Shown piece after piece: positions 26,538-63,135 of a stretch of DNA of 64,000 nucleotides. Location of the stretch: assembly GCA_951406725.2 (NCBI GenBank), contig OX597817.1, forward strand, positions 46,252,001-46,316,000, read 5' to 3'. The translations under genes and the position numbers were made by a program. This stretch comes from Octopus vulgaris (taxonomy: Eukaryota). The notes beneath the pieces are model-generated. The model was not told the DNA's origin. It ran no database searches and saw only the letters and a program-made list of their open reading frames with translations. Each line of letters opens with the position of its first letter. Position 1 is the stretch's first letter.

Positions 26538-27834
26538 TCCCAGGATGTCCATGAGGTCAATTGCAAAAGATCTCCATGCACAGGAGGAACAGCTAGAAAT
26601 GCAGTCAACGAAGACATCAGCTATAAATCTGATATGGTGAGGTTAGGTCAATTTGTCAGAAAAAGCAAAGGAAAATCACTACATCTTTATATATAAAAGA
26701 GAGGTTGTGTGTCTGTCTCCTACGATTTAGATTCCTAACTACTCCCACATTTTGCGGTGCAGTTTAACCAAAACCGGGTATCTTATAGTCGTGATTCATA
26801 TCGAGACCTTCTGGGTATTAGAGCGCGTCTACGATGAGTGTACGATTAAAAAAAAAATTACCATCAGTTTTTTCCATTTTAATGCATTTTTCGCTATTAT
26901 ATAAGGGAAGTAACTCTCTAAAAATGTCTACGATGAGTCAACGATTTAAAAAAAAATTACCATAATTTCTTTTCCATTTTTAATGCATTGTTTTGCTATT
27001 TTTTGACTATAACTCTCTAAAAATGCTTATATAGTTATTTCCCTAACAAACCCGAGTAACGCCGGGCGATACTGCTAGTCAGATATAAAAGGCTCTTAAA
27101 CAAACTCAAAAATCCAGCAGAATATATGATTTGGCTTTCCTTAAACGAGAGAAATTTCGACCAAGATCAAAAAGTTCACAGAACAGAATGTTATGTGTAG
27201 ACCTTTCTGAAGATCCAAGTGTTAAGTATACAAAATTTCCTGCAACTGTCATGGTTATATGGGTTGTCAGCAATGAAGAAACATGTGATGCCTCCTTACT
27301 TCTTTCTACAAGGCCTTAGAGTCAACTCTGCCGCCTACATTGAGGTCCTGCAAACAATTGTTAAGACCTGGATATACAGTGTATGCAATGGATGGCCATA
27401 TGTGTTTCAGTAAGACTCTGCTCTATCACACATGGCTCTAATAACACAAATGGATCGCTGAACATTTTGATGATTACATAACCACTAACTTTGGCCTCCT
27501 AATTCCCCAGATCTCAATCCATTGGACTATTACATGTGGATCGTTGCTGAGAGAGGTCAATGAACACGCCCATAATACCAAAGATTCATTGAAAGCTGCT
27601 ATAGTCAGAGTAATGTCCAGAATGAACCAGGGCCACTTGATTCGTGCATGTAGATGATTTAGATCTCGTATAGAAGCAGTTGTTGAAACTGAAGATGGCT
27701 TTATTGAATAACAATATAGAAAAGAAGGTTTATTTTTATCCTCATACCATTTTTTGATAAATAAAATTATAATCTGTTATTATATCTGTTTTTATATAGA
27801 CATAAATATGTCCTCAGATGTCTTACGCACCCTG
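26056..27834 (+). mobile_element. Tc1/mariner superfamily (DD37D/maT-like) transposon relic
   Basis: ~28 bp TIRs CAGTGTGCGTAAGGTATTTGAGGACATA / TATGTCCTCAGATGTCTTACGCACCCTG, with TA on the left. Broken transposase with VFQ*DSA, WPPNSPDLNPLDYYMW and SRIEAVVETEDGFIE. Interrupted by microsatellites and a Helitron. Confidence 0.85.
26684..27078 (+). mobile_element. Non-autonomous Helitron nested in the DD37D element
   Basis: Starts A|TCTTTATATATAAAA; ends CCCGAGTAACGCCGGG hairpin then GCTAG|T. Confidence 0.8.
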
Positions 27835-29357: not shown

Positions 29358-29399
<42 letters not shown>

Positions 29400-29627
29400 A
29401 TTAATCAATATAGGGTGGCAAAAAAAAAATTGTAGAATTATTTTTGCCACCAGCGGCCTAGTGGGAAAAAATTAAATAGTCATAGACCATTTTTAAGTTC
29501 AACATCAACAATCAAGGAACGGCCATAATAGGCCATTCACCCACTAGAAATAACAGCCAAAGCTTCAACCGCAAATAAAAATTAATTCCGTAAACCAGGA
29601 GAAAATTTAAAAAACATTTACCCTGTA

Positions 29628-29734
29628 ATTTCTTATACGATGCACCGTTTCATCTGCTGATTAATGGTAAACTAACCTGATTAAATTAATTCAAGCCAAT
29701 CTTCCATAGGCCCTCAGATTCTTCAGTAAGAAAT
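29628..29734 (-). ncRNA. Type I hammerhead ribozyme, array copy
   Basis: Reverse complement reads ATTTCTTA-CTGAAGA-ATCTG...CAGAT-GAAA-CGGTGCATCG-TA-TAAGAAAT. Confidence 0.85.
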
Positions 29735-30094
29735 AGCCCAAGTCGGAACAGATATTTTCACGAGGCATTTCCGACCTTGCCAAGGTTATATCTGACCTAA
29801 AATTTTCAAATCGTCGCACTCGCGCCAAATTTATCGGCAGCAAATAAGTATAAGCCGTCGATTCCATTACGGAATTAACCAGAAAATTCATAATTAATCA
29901 ATATAGGGTGCCAAAAAAAATTTTGTAGAATTCTTTTGCCACCAGCGGCCTAGTGGGAGAAAATTAAATAGTCATAGACCATTTTTAAGTTCAACATCAA
30001 CAATCACCCACTAGAAATAACAGCCAAAGCTTCAACCGCAAATAAAAATTAATTCCGTAAACCAGGAGAAAATTTAAAAAACATTTACCCTGTA

Positions 30095-30201
30095 ATTTCT
30101 TATACGATGCACCGTTTCATCTGCTGATTAATGGTAAACTAACCTGATTAAATTGAATCAAGCCAATCTTCCATAGGCCCTCAGATTCTTCAGTAAGAAA
30201 T
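30095..30201 (-). ncRNA. Type I hammerhead ribozyme, array copy
   Basis: Same core and helices as 31298-31404, on the minus strand. Confidence 0.85.
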
Positions 30202-30821
30202 AGCCCAAGTCGGAACAGATATTTTCACGAGGCATTTCCGACCTTGCCAAGATTATATCTGACCTAAAATTTTCAAATCGTCGCACTCGCGCCAAATTTA
30301 TCGGCAGCAAATAAATATAAGCCGTCGATTCCATTACGGAATTAACCAGAAAATTCATAATTAATCAATATAGGGTGGCAAAAAAATTTTGTAGAATTTT
30401 TTTGCCACCAGCGGCCTAGTGGGAAAAAATTAAATAGTCATAGACCATTTTTAAGTTCAACATCAACAATCAAGGAACGGCCATAATAGGCCATTCACCC
30501 ACTAGAAATAACAGCCAAAGCTTCAACCGCAAATAAAAATTAATTCCGTAAACCAGGAGAAAATTTAAAAAACATTTACCTTGTAATTTCTTATACGATG
30601 CACATATGTATATGTATATATATATATCAACAATCAAGGAACGGCCATAATAGGCCAGCGGCCTAGTGGGAAAAAAATTAAATAGTCATAGACCATTTTT
30701 AAGTTCAACATCAACAATCAAGGAACGGCCATAATAGGCCATTCACCCACTAGAAATAACAGCCAAAGCTTCAACCGCAACTAAAAATTAATTCCGTAAA
30801 CCAGGAGAAAATTACCTTGTA

Positions 30822-30928
30822 ATTTCTTATACGATGCACCGTTTCATCTGCTGATTAATGGTAAACTAACCTGATTAAATTAAATCAAGCCAATCTTCCA
30901 TAGGCCCTCAGATTCTTCAGTAAGAAAT
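30822..30928 (-). ncRNA. Type I hammerhead ribozyme, array copy
   Basis: Same core and helices as 31298-31404, on the minus strand. Confidence 0.85.
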
Positions 30929-31297
30929 AGCCCAAGTCGGAACAGATATTTTCACGAGGCATTTCCGACCTTGCCAAGGTTATATCTGACCTAAAATTTT
31001 CAAATCGTCGCACTCGCGCCAAATTTATCGGCAGCAAATAAATATAAGCCGTCGATTCCATTACGGAATTAACCAGAAAATTCATAATTAATCAATATAG
31101 GGTGGCAAAAAAAAATTTTGTAGAATTTTTTTGCCACCAGCGGCCTAGTGGGAAAAAATTAAATAGTCATAGACCATTTTTAAGTTCAACATCAACAATC
31201 AAGGAACGGCCATAATAGGCCATTCACCCACTAGAAATAACAGCCAAAGCTTCAACCGCAAATATGCCTCGTGAAAATATCTGTTCCGACTTGGGCT

Positions 31298-31404
31298 ATT
31301 TCTTACTGAAGAATCTGAGGGCCTATGGAAGATTGGCTTGATTTAATTTAATCAGGTTAGTTTACCATTAATCAGCAGATGAAACGGTGCATCGTATAAG
31401 AAAT
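31298..31404 (+). ncRNA. Type I hammerhead ribozyme (predicted cleavage 3' of GUA at 31394-31396)
   Basis: Helix I ATTTCTTA(31298-305)/TAAGAAAT(31397-404), 8 perfect bp. Core CTGAAGA(31306-312). Helix II ATCTG(31313-317)/CAGAT(31376-380). GAAA(31381-384). Helix III A-U, C-G, G-C, G-U closing a TGCA loop. Cleavage triplet GUA. Confidence 0.88.
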
Positions 31405-31789
31405 TACAGGATAAATGTTTTTTAAATTTTCTCCTGGTTTACGGAATTAATTTTTATTTGCGGTTGAAGCTTTGGCTGTTATTTCTAGTGGGTGAATGGC
31501 CTATTATGGCCGTTCCTTGATTGTTGATGTTGAACTTAAAAATGGTCTATGACTATTTAATTTTTTCCCACTAGGCCGCTGGTGGCAAAAAAATTCTACA
31601 AAATTTTTTTTGCCACCCTATATTGATTAATTATGAATTTTCTGGTTAATTCCGTAATGGAATCGACGGCTTATATTTATTTGCTGCCGATAAATTTGGC
31701 ACGAGTGCGACGATTTGAAAATTTTAGGTCAGATATAACCTTGGCAAGGTCGGAAATGCCTCGTGAAAATATCTGTTCCGACTTGGGCT

Positions 31790-31896
31790 ATTTCTTACTG
31801 AAGAATCTGAGGGCCTATGGAAGATTGGCTTGAATTAATTTAATCAGGTTAGTTTACCATTAATCAGCAGATGAAACGGTGCATCGTATAAGAAAT
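31790..31896 (+). ncRNA. Type I hammerhead ribozyme, array copy (GUA 31886-31888)
   Basis: Identical core and helices, 492 bp downstream of the previous copy. Confidence 0.87.
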
Positions 31897-32281
31897 TACA
31901 GGGTAAATGTTTTTTAAATTTTCTCCTGGTTTACGGAATTAATTTTTATTTGCGGTTGAAGCTTTGGCTGTTATTTCTAGTGGGTGAATGGCCTATTATG
32001 GCGGTTCCTTGATTGTTGATGTTGAACTTAAAAATGGTCTATGACTATTTAATTTTTTCCCACTAGGCCGCTGGTGGCAAAAAAATTCTACAAAATTTTT
32101 TTTGCCACCCTATATTGATTAATTATGAATTTTCTGGTTAATTCCGTAATGGAATCGACGGCTTATATTTATTTGCTGCCGATAAATTTGGCGCGAGTGC
32201 GACGATTTGAAAATTTTAGGTCAGATATAACCTTGGCAAGGTCGGAAATGCCTCGTGAAAATATCTGTTCCGACTTGGGCT

Positions 32282-32388
32282 ATTTCTTACTGAAGAATCT
32301 GAAGGCCTATGGAAGATTGGCTTGATTTAATTTAATCAGGTTAGTTTAGCATTAATCAGCAGATGAAACGGTGCATCGTATAAGAAAT
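32282..32388 (+). ncRNA. Type I hammerhead ribozyme, array copy (GUA 32378-32380)
   Basis: Identical core; substitutions seen only in the helix II extension. Confidence 0.87.
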
Positions 32389-32772
32389 TACAGGGTAAAT
32401 GTTTTTTAAATTTTCTCCTGGTTTACGGAATTAATTTTTATTTGCGGTTGAAGCTTTGGCTGTTATTTCTAGTGGGTGAATGGCCTATTATGGCCGTTCC
32501 TTGATTGTTGATGTTGAACTTAAAAATGGTCTATGACTATTTAATTTTTTCCCACTAGGCCGCTGGTGGCAAAAAAATTCTACAAAATTTTTTTGGCACC
32601 CTATATTGATTAATTATGAATTTTCTGGTTAATTCCATAATGGAATCGACGGCTTATATTTATTTGCTGCCGATAAATTTGGCGCGAGTGCGACGATTTG
32701 AAAATTTTAGGTCAGATATAACCTTGGCAAGGTCGGAAATGCCTCGTGAAAATATCTGTTCCGACTTGGGCT

Positions 32773-32879
32773 ATTTCTTACTGAAGAATCTGAGGGCCTA
32801 TGGAAGATTGGCTTGATTTAATTTAATCAGGTTAGTTTACCATTAATCAGCAGATGAAACGGTGCATCGTATAAGAAAT
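32773..32879 (+). ncRNA. Type I hammerhead ribozyme, array copy (GUA 32869-32871)
   Basis: Identical core and helices. Confidence 0.87.
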
Positions 32880-33264
32880 TACAGGGTAAATGTTTTTTAA
32901 ATTTTCTCCTGGTTTACGGAATTAATTTTTATTTGCGGTTGAAGCTTTGGCTGTTATTTCTAGTGGGTGAATGGCCTATTATGGCCGTTCCTTGATTGTT
33001 GATGTTGAACTTAAAAATGGTCTATGACTATTTAATTTTTTCCCACTAGGCCGCTGGTGGCAAAAAAATTCTACAAAATTTTTTTTGGCACCCTATATTG
33101 ATTAATTATGAATTTTCTGGTTAATTCCGTAATGGAATCGACGGCTTATATTTATTTGCTGCCGATAAATTTGGCGCGAGTGCGACGATTTGAAAATTTT
33201 AGGTCAGATATAACCTTGGCAAGGTCGGAAATGTCTCGTGAAAATATCTGTTCCGACTTGGGCT

Positions 33265-33371
33265 ATTTCTTACTGAAGAATCTGAGGGCCTATGGAAGAT
33301 TGGCTTGATTTAATTTAATCAGGTTAGTTTACCATTAATCAGCAGATGAAACGGTGCATCGTATAAGAAAT
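33265..33371 (+). ncRNA. Type I hammerhead ribozyme, array copy (GUA 33361-33363)
   Basis: Identical core and helices; followed by a variant unit. Confidence 0.87.
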
Positions 33372-33991
33372 TACAAGGTAATTTTCTCCTGGTTTACGGA
33401 ATTAATTTTTAGTTGCGGTTGAAGCTTTGGCTGTTATTTCTAGTGGGTGAATGGCCTATTATGGCCGTTCCTTGATTGTTGATGTTGAACTTAAAAATGG
33501 TCTATGACTATTTAATTTTTTTCCCACTAGGCCGCTGGCCTATTATGGCCGTTCCTTGATTGTTGATATATATATATACATATACATATGTGCATCGTAT
33601 AAGAAATTACAAGGTAAATGTTTTTTAAATTTTCTCCTGGTTTACGGAATTAATTTTTATTTGCGGTTGAAGCTTTGGCTGTTATTTCTAGTGGGTGAAT
33701 GGCCTATTATGGCCGTTCCTTGATTGTTGATGTTGAACTTAAAAATGGTCTATGACTATTTAATTTTTTCCCACTAGGCCGCTGGTGGCAAAAAATTCTA
33801 CAAAATTTTTTTTGCCACCCTATATTGATTAATTATGAATTTTCTGGTTAATTCCGTAATGGAATCGACGGCTTATATTTATTTGCTGCCGATAAATTTG
33901 GCGCGAGTGCGACGATTTGAAAATTTTAGGTCAGATATAACCTTGGCAAGGTCGGAAATGCCTCGTGAAAATATCTGTTCCGACTTGGGCT

Positions 33992-34098
33992 ATTTCTTAC
34001 TGAAGAATCTGAGGGCCTATGGAAGATTGGCTTGATTTAATTTAATCAGGTTAGTTTACCATTAATCAGCAGATGAAACGGTGCATCGTATAAGAAAT
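33992..34098 (+). ncRNA. Type I hammerhead ribozyme, array copy (GUA 34088-34090)
   Basis: Identical core and helices. Confidence 0.87.
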
Positions 34099-34317
34099 TA
34101 CAGGGTAAATGTTTTTTAAATTTTCTCCTGGTTTACGGAATTAATTTTTATTTGCGGTTGAAGCTTTGTCTGTTATTTCTAGTGGGTGAATGGCCTATTA
34201 TGGCCGTTCCTTGATTGTTGATATATATATATACATATACATATGTGCACATATAGAATATATACAATACTTATGTATATATATATATTATATGTATATA
34301 CACTCATGTATATTATA

Positions 34318-35172
34318 TTAGGTCGTCAAGAATGAAATTTGAAGAAAAGAAAAACATGATTGCTAATGATTTATAAATACAAGGAATATTTGTATTCGTC
34401 AAAGTATGCACCCGTATTGTTAATATAATTTTGCTATTTAAGCGGTAGCTTGTCCAGTCCGGAATAGTAAAAGTCTGGAAATCTAGAGTCAATAAAATCT
34501 TGGAAGGCCTATTTTACAACATCATCGGAATTAAATTATTTTGCAAGAAAGAACTCATATTTCAGAACTGAACGTATTTCCGACTTATCCATCTCTAAAC
34601 AAAAATAGAAAAAAAAAAACGATTTATAAATCTCTCTCTATATAAACGGCAGTTTGTCTGTGTGTGTTTCTGTGTGTCTGTTTGGTTGTACCCTCACTCT
34701 GAGCACGGCTTTCAACCGATTCTGATGAAACTTGACACACACATAGCCCAATGTCATAATTCAAAACTAACGCAGTGAAAATTTTGAAAAGTTCCCCCAG
34801 TTCTGAAAAAGACCGATAAATTCGACATGGGGTCAACAATCAAAAACACAAACCACAGATGGTCTAGGGGACGCAACTCGACCTTTTTAACTATCAAAAA
34901 AAAATTTACCATAATTTTTTTTCCCATTTTTTTCCTATTTTTTGGCTATAACTCTCTAAAAATGCTTTATAGTTATTTTCCTTACAAACCCGAGCAACGC
35001 CGGGCGATACTGCTAGTACTTTATAAAGCGCGAAATGAGTTACAATAAAGAAATAGATGTGTCAGCTTTCTAACAAAAAATAAAGATTGTCAAAATATAA
35101 TAATGGCGCAAAATAAGTAGCCGTCAAAGTTTACCATATAACTTACAACAAATTTCGTACTTGACGACCTAA
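34318..35172 (-). mobile_element. Internally deleted mariner element
   Basis: TIRs TTAGGTCGTCAAGAATGAAATTTG / CAAATTTCGTACTTGACGACCTAA with TA on both sides. Minus translation AFQDFIDSRFPDFYYSGLDKLPLK*QNYINNTGAYFDE is a mariner C-terminus. Confidence 0.85.
34631..35016 (+). mobile_element. Non-autonomous Helitron nested in the mariner relic
   Basis: A|TC start; ends CCCGAGCAACGCCGGG...GCTAG|T. The 3' ~130 bp is shared with 26684-27078. Confidence 0.8.
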
Positions 35173-61425: not shown

Positions 61426-62938
61426 TAAACTTAGATAAACTTAGATATGTTTCGACCAAAGATTGGTCCAGGCCATGTCTAACTTAATAGCACCACCTGA
61501 TAGGATTATTCGAATCCTGTTTAAGTCAAGTTTTGTTCAAGTCAAGTTTTGTTCAGTGAGTTCTTGTTGGGTGAGTTGTATCCAATTATGGGTGGCTTAT
61601 CTGGTATTCTTTGAAGGAATCTATCCAGACTCTGTTTAAAGTTGATTGGATCCTTTTCCTCTTTGATCTCTCTCGGGACAATGTTAAATAGGGCAGGGCC
61701 TGTTGAGGAAAATAAATTATGTTGCAGTGTACATGTATGTTGTGATCTTGAATTGGTCAGGGGACGTATAGCCCGTGGTCCAAGTCTTGGATGAACCTTG
61801 AAGCTAATGTTTAGGTCGTTTGGGCATAGTTGGCGGTATATTTTCCACATCGTACAAATGATGTACCGCTCACGGCGACGCTGGAGGGAGTAAAGTTTCA
61901 AGGCTTTAAGGCGATCCCAATAATCGAGAGCAGCCATGCCTTCAATTCGTTTAGTGAGTGCCCTCTGGGGTGACTCAATTCTGGAGATGTTTTGTCTTGT
62001 GTGAGGAGACCACAGTGGGCAGCAGTATTCAAGATGTGGCCGTACAAAGGAGGAAAAAAGTGGTATGATGACACCTTGTTCTCTGGACCGGAAAGTTCCT
62101 AAGATCCAGCAACTCATCCTACGAGCTATATCGACCTTCTTGTTGATGTGTGCACTCCAACTGAGATCGTCATCAACAATTACACCCAGGTCTCTGATAT
62201 TGTTAGAGGTTGTGAGCGGTTCCCCTGAAGGAAGAGAGTATGGCTGTTTTAGTGAGGAGTTTCTTCCAAAATGCATCAGCTCGAATTTTCCCTCGTTCAG
62301 TTGCATTTTGTTTCTGTCTGCCCATTGACTCACATCATATAGATCAGACTGGAGTTGAGTTCGGTCTGCTTCTTCATTGACGATTTGCTGGAGCTTGGTG
62401 TCATCAGCAAATATTTTCACTTTGCAGTAATGTACGACACTGGAAAGGTTGTTTATGTAGATTATGAAGAGTAGCGGACCCAAGACAGTCCCCTGGGGGA
62501 CACCGCTGGTGACTTTTGCTGGGCTTGAGTGGACTCCATCAACTACAACATGTTGTGTTCTATTCGCCAGGAAATACTTGATCCAGTGTAGAACTTTTCC
62601 ACGGATTCCAACATTTGCCAATTTTGAGAGTAGGATATTATGGTCTACCCTGTTGAACGCTTTACTGAAGTCAAGATATATGACATCAGAGTTCGAACCT
62701 GTTCCCAAGGCTTTGAGTACATCTTCAATGTGGTGTAAGATCTGTGTTAGACAGTCCCTGTCACAGCGAAAGCCATGCTGATTTGCATTTAGGAGTTTCT
62801 GGGTCTCCAGGAAGTCAGCCAACCTTGATGTTAACACTCTTTCAAACACTTTGATGATGTGGGAGGTGAGTGAGATTGGGCGATAGTTGAGTGCGAGGGA
62901 TCTGTTTCCCTGTTTGAAAACCGGGATGACTGACTGGG

Positions 62939-62940
<2 letters not shown>
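61426..62940 (-). mobile_element. 5'-truncated CR1-group LINE with intact 3' end
   Basis: RT ORF plus a 3' UTR stem-loop GACC aatcttt GGTC-GAAAC and terminal tandem (ATCTAAGTTT)x2. Sits in (TA)n. Confidence 0.88.
61542..62940 (-). CDS. Non-LTR retrotransposon reverse transcriptase (CR1-like ORF2 C-terminal part, 5'-truncated, open frame)
   Basis: VIPVFKQG..NYRPISLTS upstream and in frame with the 435 aa ORF. Motifs QHGFR, YLDFSKAF, GVPQGTVLGPLLF, FADD, DLGV, RPHLEY and LYSLQRRRERY. Confidence 0.9.
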
Positions 62941-63004
<64 letters not shown>

Positions 63005-63135
63005 ATCACTAGCCATTACAGGCACACTGAAGGAAAACAAGAAGAGAAGAAATGTGTGTAATGGCTAGTGATATACATATATATATACATATATATATAT
63101 ATGTATGTATACGTGTATATATATATATATATATG

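Follow-up and report, generated by a model that had tools for sequence, protein, structure and literature searches.

The window, meaning the whole 64,000-nt stretch of Octopus vulgaris DNA analyzed here, holds a repeat array between 29393 and 34222, in which we found nine full hammerhead copies, each differing from the copy at 31289..31410 at 0–2 of 122 positions, and no overlapping open reading frame of at least 100 aa. The array has an inverted and a direct part; their coordinates, together with the predicted elements of the copy under study, are as follows.

29393..31264, minus strand: inverted array part, with hammerheads at 29622-29743, 30089-30210 and 30816-30937, bounded by (AT)n at 29361-29399
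31264..34222, plus strand: direct array part, ending in (AT)n, with further hammerheads at 31781, 32273, 32764, 33256 and 33983
31397..31888, plus strand: a single 492-nt unit bounded by successive cut sites, the predicted monomer RNA
31289..31410, plus strand: the type I hammerhead ribozyme copy under study, assigned by sequence, with core and helices I and III covarying in alignment A1
31293..31297, plus strand: predicted pseudoknot strand on the helix I side, (G)GGCU
31298..31305, plus strand: helix I 5' strand, 8 bp with 31397-31404, with covariation in A1
31306..31312, plus strand: core CUGAAGA (C3-A9), assigned by sequence
31313..31317, plus strand: proximal helix II 5' strand, 5 bp with 31376-31380
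31318-31324 and 31369-31375, plus strand: helix II internal loop, 7x7
31320..31324, plus strand: predicted pseudoknot strand in the helix II internal loop, GGCC(U)
31325..31368, plus strand: hairpin extending helix II, with a 6-nt loop and pairing at 18 of 19 positions
31381..31396, plus strand: core GAAA (31381-84), helix III (31384-95) and GUA triplet (31394-96)
31407..31436, plus strand: downstream hairpin, CAGGA (31407-11) with UCCUG (31432-36), a rival of distal helix I (31290-93 with 31407-10)

Alternative insertion 3' ends lie near unit positions 132 (31528) and 238 (31634). A 1,265-base stretch at 30001-31264 recurs as an inverted duplicate at 32930-34192 with 99.3% identity, and because the duplicate includes an internal (AT)n junction (30600-30657 / 33536-33594), it points to a second copying round of an already complex insertion. 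Another short repeat family with a shared terminal motif occupies 34610-35020 and 26827-27080 of the window, one copy being inserted just 3' of the array, and a 487-aa open frame at 61542-63005 on the minus strand resembles, by eye, a fragment of a LINE-type reverse transcriptase.

Judged from sequence, every 492-bp unit carries a real, intact-core type I hammerhead for which self-cleavage is predicted. CUGANGA, GAAA and an NUH triplet surround three helices, with helix I open, and the predicted cleavage falls between 31396 and 31397. The AUCUG (31313-17)/CAGAU (31376-80) helix and the 7x7 internal loop are present as the sequence-only reading described them. Rfam hammerhead models gave no match in the window at the gathering score and none in 31200-31900 at E values up to 10; RF00163 spans 45 positions, relative to which the helix II arm of the window motif is a long insert.

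We searched the genome (2.8 Gb, 227 contigs) for relatives. A 141-base query returned 2,528 candidates, and the 40 that were scored are all 98–100% identical, too close for covariation. Sister subfamilies, ~70–93% identical to the window unit, were traced from loose contig ends and then retrieved by patterns and regions; a pattern joining helix III to a downstream motif matched at least 3,799 copies genome-wide, and its reversed control matched 0. Alignment A1 comprises 42 distinct variants chosen by hand, with a mean column identity of 64%. Excluded from it were near-identical and 5'-truncated copies along with some decayed single copies; L138, L147 and L150 are among the exclusions, and all three break the central pair of the pseudoknot considered below. 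RNAalifold on A1 missed the helix II extension owing to indels, and we used a count over the named structure instead, in which 93.9% of 1,230 cells were paired as against 28–51% with slid partners. CUGANGA is present in 42 of 42 rows, most of them retrieved with that same pattern. The inner six pairs of helix I are 98% paired, with both-side changes at five of the six, and the four pairs of helix III are 100% paired over the 42 rows, with double changes at two.

Position 10.1-11.1 is A-U in the window copy and G-C in C116 and most H rows; subfamilies D and C (L074, L076, L060, L118, L129 and relatives) show A·C, A·A or extra bases there. Multi-copy subfamilies with a CCGAUGA core (U4 to C), represented by L187, L188, L191 and L193, spread nonetheless. 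The existence of multi-copy subfamilies with A·C or extra bases at 10.1-11.1, or with the CCGA core, suggests that perfect catalysis may not be needed for spread.

Helix I had been proposed to extend past an internal loop through CUUG/CAGG. This pairing is possible but doubtful, as it loses to the downstream hairpin in folding models: in the window copy its probability is ~0.35, but 0.00 when the folded sequence is lengthened by 30 bases on the 3' side. Folding with the proximal helix imposed gives AGG a downstream partner in 29 of the 40 rows that could be evaluated, and clade C has UUAGG/CCUAA, a compensatory form, at the downstream hairpin site. The CAAG variant offered in favor of the extension does occur, in two of the nine window copies; the two are mirror images of one inverted duplication and count as one event. 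A fast monomer hammerhead with distal helix I as first drawn, CUU/AGG closing internal loop 1, is a tentative alternative that we consider doubtful. Three distal pairs can form in 38–39 of the 42 rows, and the helix would arise first in transcription, ahead of the competing 3' strand; set against this, a single cell shows a double change, and the downstream preference is complete in the window copy. Because distal helix I hardly covaries and downstream pairing is preferred, the modeling suggests that loop 1 may be a free 5' strand or a transient loop.

Helix III (31384-31395, ACGGUGCAUCGU) is fully self-complementary over 12 nt, a property that the sequence-only reading did not mention. The same is true of 42 of 42 rows, partly by construction, as most patterns demanded UGCA. 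For the window copy the computed energy is -0.2 kcal/mol for helix III alone and -17.5 kcal/mol for the two-copy duplex; over all 42 rows the hairpin ranges from 0 to -1.0 kcal/mol and the duplex from -14.5 to -18.7 kcal/mol. Among the first 100 of the 3,799 matches listed, read by eye from a pattern that did not require the loop, loop III is UGCA in 69, UAUA in 22 (at 4 loci), UACA in 7 (at 1 locus) and wobble-compatible in two, and it is self-complementary in 93. The step from UGCA to UAUA is a double change within loop III that keeps the palindrome, and by analogy with the available text of PMC4209133 and PMC6765202 it points to a double-hammerhead fold in use. UAUA also marks a young sub-subfamily (L184, L185, L195) with long arrays of 9–10 units and nine shared diagnostic changes.

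These properties bear on whether the ribozyme cuts singly or in pairs. Cleavage might occur only when two adjacent units pair via helix III, leaving monomer circles protected, a scheme that we regard as rather unlikely. The large stability gap between duplex and hairpin in every row and the prevalence of self-complementary loops among the matches listed speak for it, as does folding of the circular monomer, which is predicted to lack helices I and III; moreover, a palindromic loop 3 is described as a mark of dimer cleavage in the accessible part of PMC4209133. Against an obligate dimer, the four pairs and tetraloop of helix III exceed those of invertebrate motifs with shorter helix III that are reported to cut well as monomers (PMC7229834 and PMC7761336, available portions), a seven-copy array carries the non-palindromic UACA loop, and UGCA was required by the patterns that found most subfamilies. 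Monomer activity, as the sequence-only reading had it, is an unproven prediction, and the palindromic helix III resembles that of dimer-cleaving hammerheads.

The helix II arm ends in a hairpin formed by 31325-31343 and 31350-31368. As had been claimed, 18 of its 19 positions are paired, five of them as G·U; the remaining one is an A·A mismatch. None of 2000 dinucleotide shuffles of the 44-nt arm attained 18 pairs (best 17). The hairpin stands, but its given length of ~30 bp does not; this figure is obtained only by adding the proximal helix and the internal loop to the 19 positions of the extension. The fold is favored on the ribozyme-sense strand: the arm reaches -25.2 kcal/mol (z -4.76, 0 of 200 shuffles as good), the opposite strand -9.0 kcal/mol (z -0.55), and folding makes sense more stable than antisense in 37 of the 42 A1 rows. 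Selection on RNA structure is borne out by compensatory changes among sister subfamilies. Eight of 15 pairs of the main helix are altered on both sides in the named-structure count on A1, and in the 25 rows nearest the window 439 of 475 extension cells are paired, with 104 G·U against 7 A·C and a G-C to A-U replacement at 31340/31353 in eight rows. G·U richness, by contrast, fails as a trait, the arm of the H clade being shorter and A-U-rich. The hairpin is conserved, being found in every subfamily examined, whereas its G·U content and length are not.

We considered whether the G·U pairs could be A-to-I edits fixed by re-insertion. Distinct variants of young genomic copies comprise 21 G>A, 12 C>T, 7 T>C and 4 A>G changes; since there is no A>G excess, the pairs cannot be attributed to fixed editing. 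None of the datasets that hold the unit is on record as RNA. Four runs that are only guessed to be RNA (X9, X11, X16 and X17) hold it as contigs, in which circles are indistinguishable from tandem DNA. In their contigs A>G changes number 27, 10, 22 and 45, and G>A changes 4, 7, 3 and 9. Comparison of window 31264-32247 with these runs gave an excess of A>G plus T>C, and A>G changes occur in clusters within loose ends; a pattern derived from one run contig matched nowhere in the genome. The excess, seen in runs with no matched DNA control, is compatible with transcription and suggestive of A-to-I editing on both strands.

The extension would most likely serve as a stable cap whose length can vary, presenting the internal loop and having no catalytic role. 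We think it unlikely that it is instead a binding handle for a Penelope protein or host factor, or an ADAR substrate that tunes cleavage, and is kept on that account. Its presence in all subfamilies examined, the long helix II arms of unrelated hammerhead families in the same genome, and the excess of A>G plus T>C over G>A plus C>T in the four putative RNA runs, opposite to the genomic spectrum, favor such a role, but the arm ranges from 46 to 77 nt across A1 with drifting sequence, the runs come from other individuals or species and include sister subfamilies, and one A>G site (31325) also occurs in genomic copies. At least three of these other hammerhead families (L032, L033 and L036, at G000 C7, C1 and C15; L085; L156 and L181) have helix II arms of ~55–70 nt and a short palindromic helix III, with no evident likeness to the 492-bp unit; long arms recur in this genome.

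The internal loop that the cap would present contains one strand of the proposed pseudoknot. The pairs open to GGGCU (31293-97) and GGCCU (31320-24) are G·U, G-C, G-C, C-G and U·G, and this contact between loops 1 and 2 is supported by compensatory changes in sister subfamilies. Scoring positions by anchoring on the GG strand and the aligned CC, we found the central pair to be C-G in 32 rows, U·G in 1 and U-A in 9. One inner G-C pair is G-C in 41 rows and G·U in 1, the other G-C in all 42; the outer pair is paired in 19 rows (U-A 12, A-U 5, wobble 2) and the last pair in 31 (U·G 20, U-A 8, C-G 3). Consecutive pairs number five in 12 rows, four in 26 and three in 4, giving at least four in 38 of 42. 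In tree order, the central pair passes from C-G to U·G (C116, a basal C-clade row) to U-A (C clade), and the relatives L188 and L193 retain C-G. Crown C has perfect 5-bp matches, AGGUU/AACCU and AGGUC/GACCU; its outer pair gains A-U, and its opposite end is U-A, U·G or C-G. Natural variants of the strand pair include GGCU/GGCC, GGUU/AGCC and GGUU/AACC. In the named-structure count the pseudoknot comes out lower, at 88.5%, owing to a one-column displacement of the GG strand by MAFFT in seven rows.

The covariation has clear bounds. The central double change is essentially one clade-level event, and the two nearly invariant G-C pairs give no covariation signal. The predicted partner of the central base is its best complement among all alignment columns (41 of 42 Watson-Crick, raw column), but a second column, unrelated to the pseudoknot, reaches 40 of 42, making a phylogenetic confound evident. 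Distances from the two strands to the core correlate (rho 0.59), the rows being related. An apparent second, independent switch in subfamily H1 was not significant (2 of 7 versus 2 of 26, p 0.19). In an unselected check we matched 110 distinct copies in all fetched loci and skipped three whose 5' half had been replaced; the 3-bp core is kept in 93 of 107 and absent in 14. By eye, these exceptions comprise five truncated flanks, one alignment artefact and eight single-copy breaks; L150, with its broken central pair, escaped the pattern used for this check. G31293 is claimed by both the CUUG/CAGG helix and the 5-bp pseudoknot, which are mutually exclusive.

Taken together, the alignment makes it very probable that a pseudoknot exists between the helix I side strand and the helix II internal loop. 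That the GG/CC match is a by-product of shared descent, the ribozyme using other tertiary contacts or none, is most improbable: independent changes are few, GGCU/GGCC is short, and mussel retrozyme hammerheads cut without recognizable contacts (PMC7229834, available text), but the stepwise route via a wobble pair, the coordinated changes at three positions and the near-invariance of GG and CC amid 64% mean column identity all argue against it. Both pseudoknot strands lie on the catalytic half, which would make the contact compatible with a single or a double hammerhead.

The element itself is a non-coding, (TA)n-targeted Penelope-like repeat, a non-LTR retrozyme. It has the attributes of that class, with tandem non-coding units, a type I hammerhead in each, GC under 50% and dispersed copies showing retrotransposition, as well as those of a non-autonomous Penelope-like element, namely 5' truncation, an inverted 5' copy, an optional tail and a microsatellite target. 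Of 37 distinct copy ends (22 sites), 36 run into (AT)n, mostly near unit positions 132 or 238, and inverted insertions often have one of these two ends on each side. Seven of 13 arrays have positions at which every unit that spans them carries the same non-majority base, bases scored as diagnostic of a subfamily being set aside; this pattern fits a single template for the copies. According to the available portion of PMC11167929, a Penelope element has two reverse-transcription starts and a "tail," which the two insertion ends resemble; inverted, truncated, (TA)n-biased insertions as reported in the accessible text of PMC8557442 have their counterpart in the inverted 5'-truncated copies seen here.

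The genome also has Penelope ORFs with reverse transcriptase (RT) and GIY-YIG domains, including 781-aa frames, and a (TA)n run lies within 1.5 kb downstream in 28 of 29 RT-EN loci. We found no sequence shared between the unit and the autonomous elements at 30 GIY-YIG, 6 extended and 29 RT-EN loci, a small sample of the genome's Penelope copies in which separate insertions of the unit were set aside; local alignment of the unit to three Penelope 3' regions scored no better than shuffles. A Penelope ORF beside an H-type copy (L140) was a candidate partner but proved to belong to a separate element, which lies past an (AT)n run and has an unrelated terminal repeat of its own. Autonomous Penelope-like families that seem recent (L107-L112; L167-L183) have RT-EN frames of 781 aa and ~753 aa with a Cx4Cx2C linker; their 3' ends at (TA)n are alternative ones, and two of L107-L112 have an upstream ORF; a simple scan of their terminal repeats found no canonical hammerhead. 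Hammerhead cleavage was dispensable for in vitro insertion of one Penelope element (PMC11167929, as available), and in vitro cleavage was not seen for eight of nine predicted Xenopus retrozymes (bioRxiv 10.64898/2026.07.22.740005, in its accessible text).

Our main reading, to which we assign a probability of roughly 0.7, is that the motif cuts tandem transcripts to 492-nt units and that a Watson-Crick pseudoknot of 3–5 bp is predicted to replace the usual loop-loop contacts. Tandem transcripts would likely be cleaved by the hammerhead, the pseudoknot holding helices I and II side by side; both modes, a single hammerhead or a double one formed by adjacent units via the palindromic helix III, are likely open. 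The downstream hairpin would likely strip distal helix I and refold the 5' end after cleavage, and the units would likely be circularized and copied in trans by a Neptune-type Penelope reverse transcriptase-endonuclease, a hypothetical partner. Known chemistry is left unchanged and no new element class is revealed. What this reading adds is a covariation-backed brace between helices I and II for animal hammerheads, together with the finding that a single genome holds thousands of ribozyme motifs that evade Rfam models because of their long helix II. The pseudoknot strands, the UGCA, UACA and UAUA loops and the arms of 46–77 nt offer natural variants for tests of tertiary contact and of monomer versus dimer cleavage, and the two fixed insertion ends and (TA)n target link the retrozyme directly to Penelope-type integration.

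A bolder possibility, which we hold to be rather improbable, is an undescribed natural architecture: a fast, pseudoknot-braced type I hammerhead whose catalytic half folds by itself around a long arm and which switches among single, double and downstream-hairpin forms, the arm acting as a handle for a Penelope protein or for A-to-I editing. If so, it would be one of several long-arm hammerhead families overlooked by standard descriptors, with a natural series of compensatory mutations ready within one genome.

Among the texts covered, a part of the literature that included the review PMC6155905, we found no type I motif that combines a long helix II arm with a pseudoknot through its internal loop; in the same texts, neither a description of the window repeat family nor anything relevant on hammerheads in octopus appeared. 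The label "new structural variant" is fair for the arrangement but not for the contact, stem I/II pseudoknots being already known from the accessible portions of PMC3088659 and PMC7936874. The comparisons that follow refer to the available text of each source. Metazoan non-LTR retrozymes (Cervera and de la Pena 2020, PMC7229834; Li et al. 2026, bioRxiv 10.64898/2026.07.22.740005) share with the window element tandem non-coding units with one type I hammerhead each, low GC and co-occurring Penelope-like elements. Unit size is 492 nt here, compared with 170–400 nt (PMC7229834) and 51–972 nt (bioRxiv 10.64898/2026.07.22.740005). In those retrozymes helix II has 4 bp and a terminal loop, whereas here the arm is 68 nt with an internal loop, the contact, unlike theirs, is a Watson-Crick pseudoknot, and a homologous pLTR of an autonomous element, unlike in theirs, was not found among the loci sampled.

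Hammerheads in Penelope-like elements, of minimal and dimer type (Cervera and de la Pena 2014, PMC4209133), are likewise type I, with a palindromic helix III and loop 3, a tandem setting, a larger-than-usual helix II and many variant subfamilies. They have a helix II of 7–8 bp, almost no helix III and poorly defined tertiary contacts; the window motif, in comparison, has a 4-bp helix III and a covarying pseudoknot. In ~40% of hammerheads a pseudoknot links stems I and II (Perreault et al. 2011, PMC3088659), where at least 4 bp must be possible between the stem I and II regions, and 5 bp are possible in the window copy. There the partners are terminal loops or tails, whereas in the window motif helix II contributes an internal loop, with an 18-bp hairpin as its cap. 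In the PK hammerhead crystal structure (Zhan et al. 2024, PMC11300833) the core is likewise stabilized by a pseudoknot, which substitutes for helix II, whereas the window motif keeps helix II whole. An internal loop, an extra hairpin cap and a GCC/GGC-type match to the loop of the other helix also occur in the type III hammerheads of HDV-like RNAs from toad and termite and in related genomic motifs of flies (de la Pena et al. 2021, PMC7936874). The window motif mirrors their arrangement, with an extended helix I in a type III ribozyme there and an extended helix II in a type I ribozyme with a palindromic helix III here.
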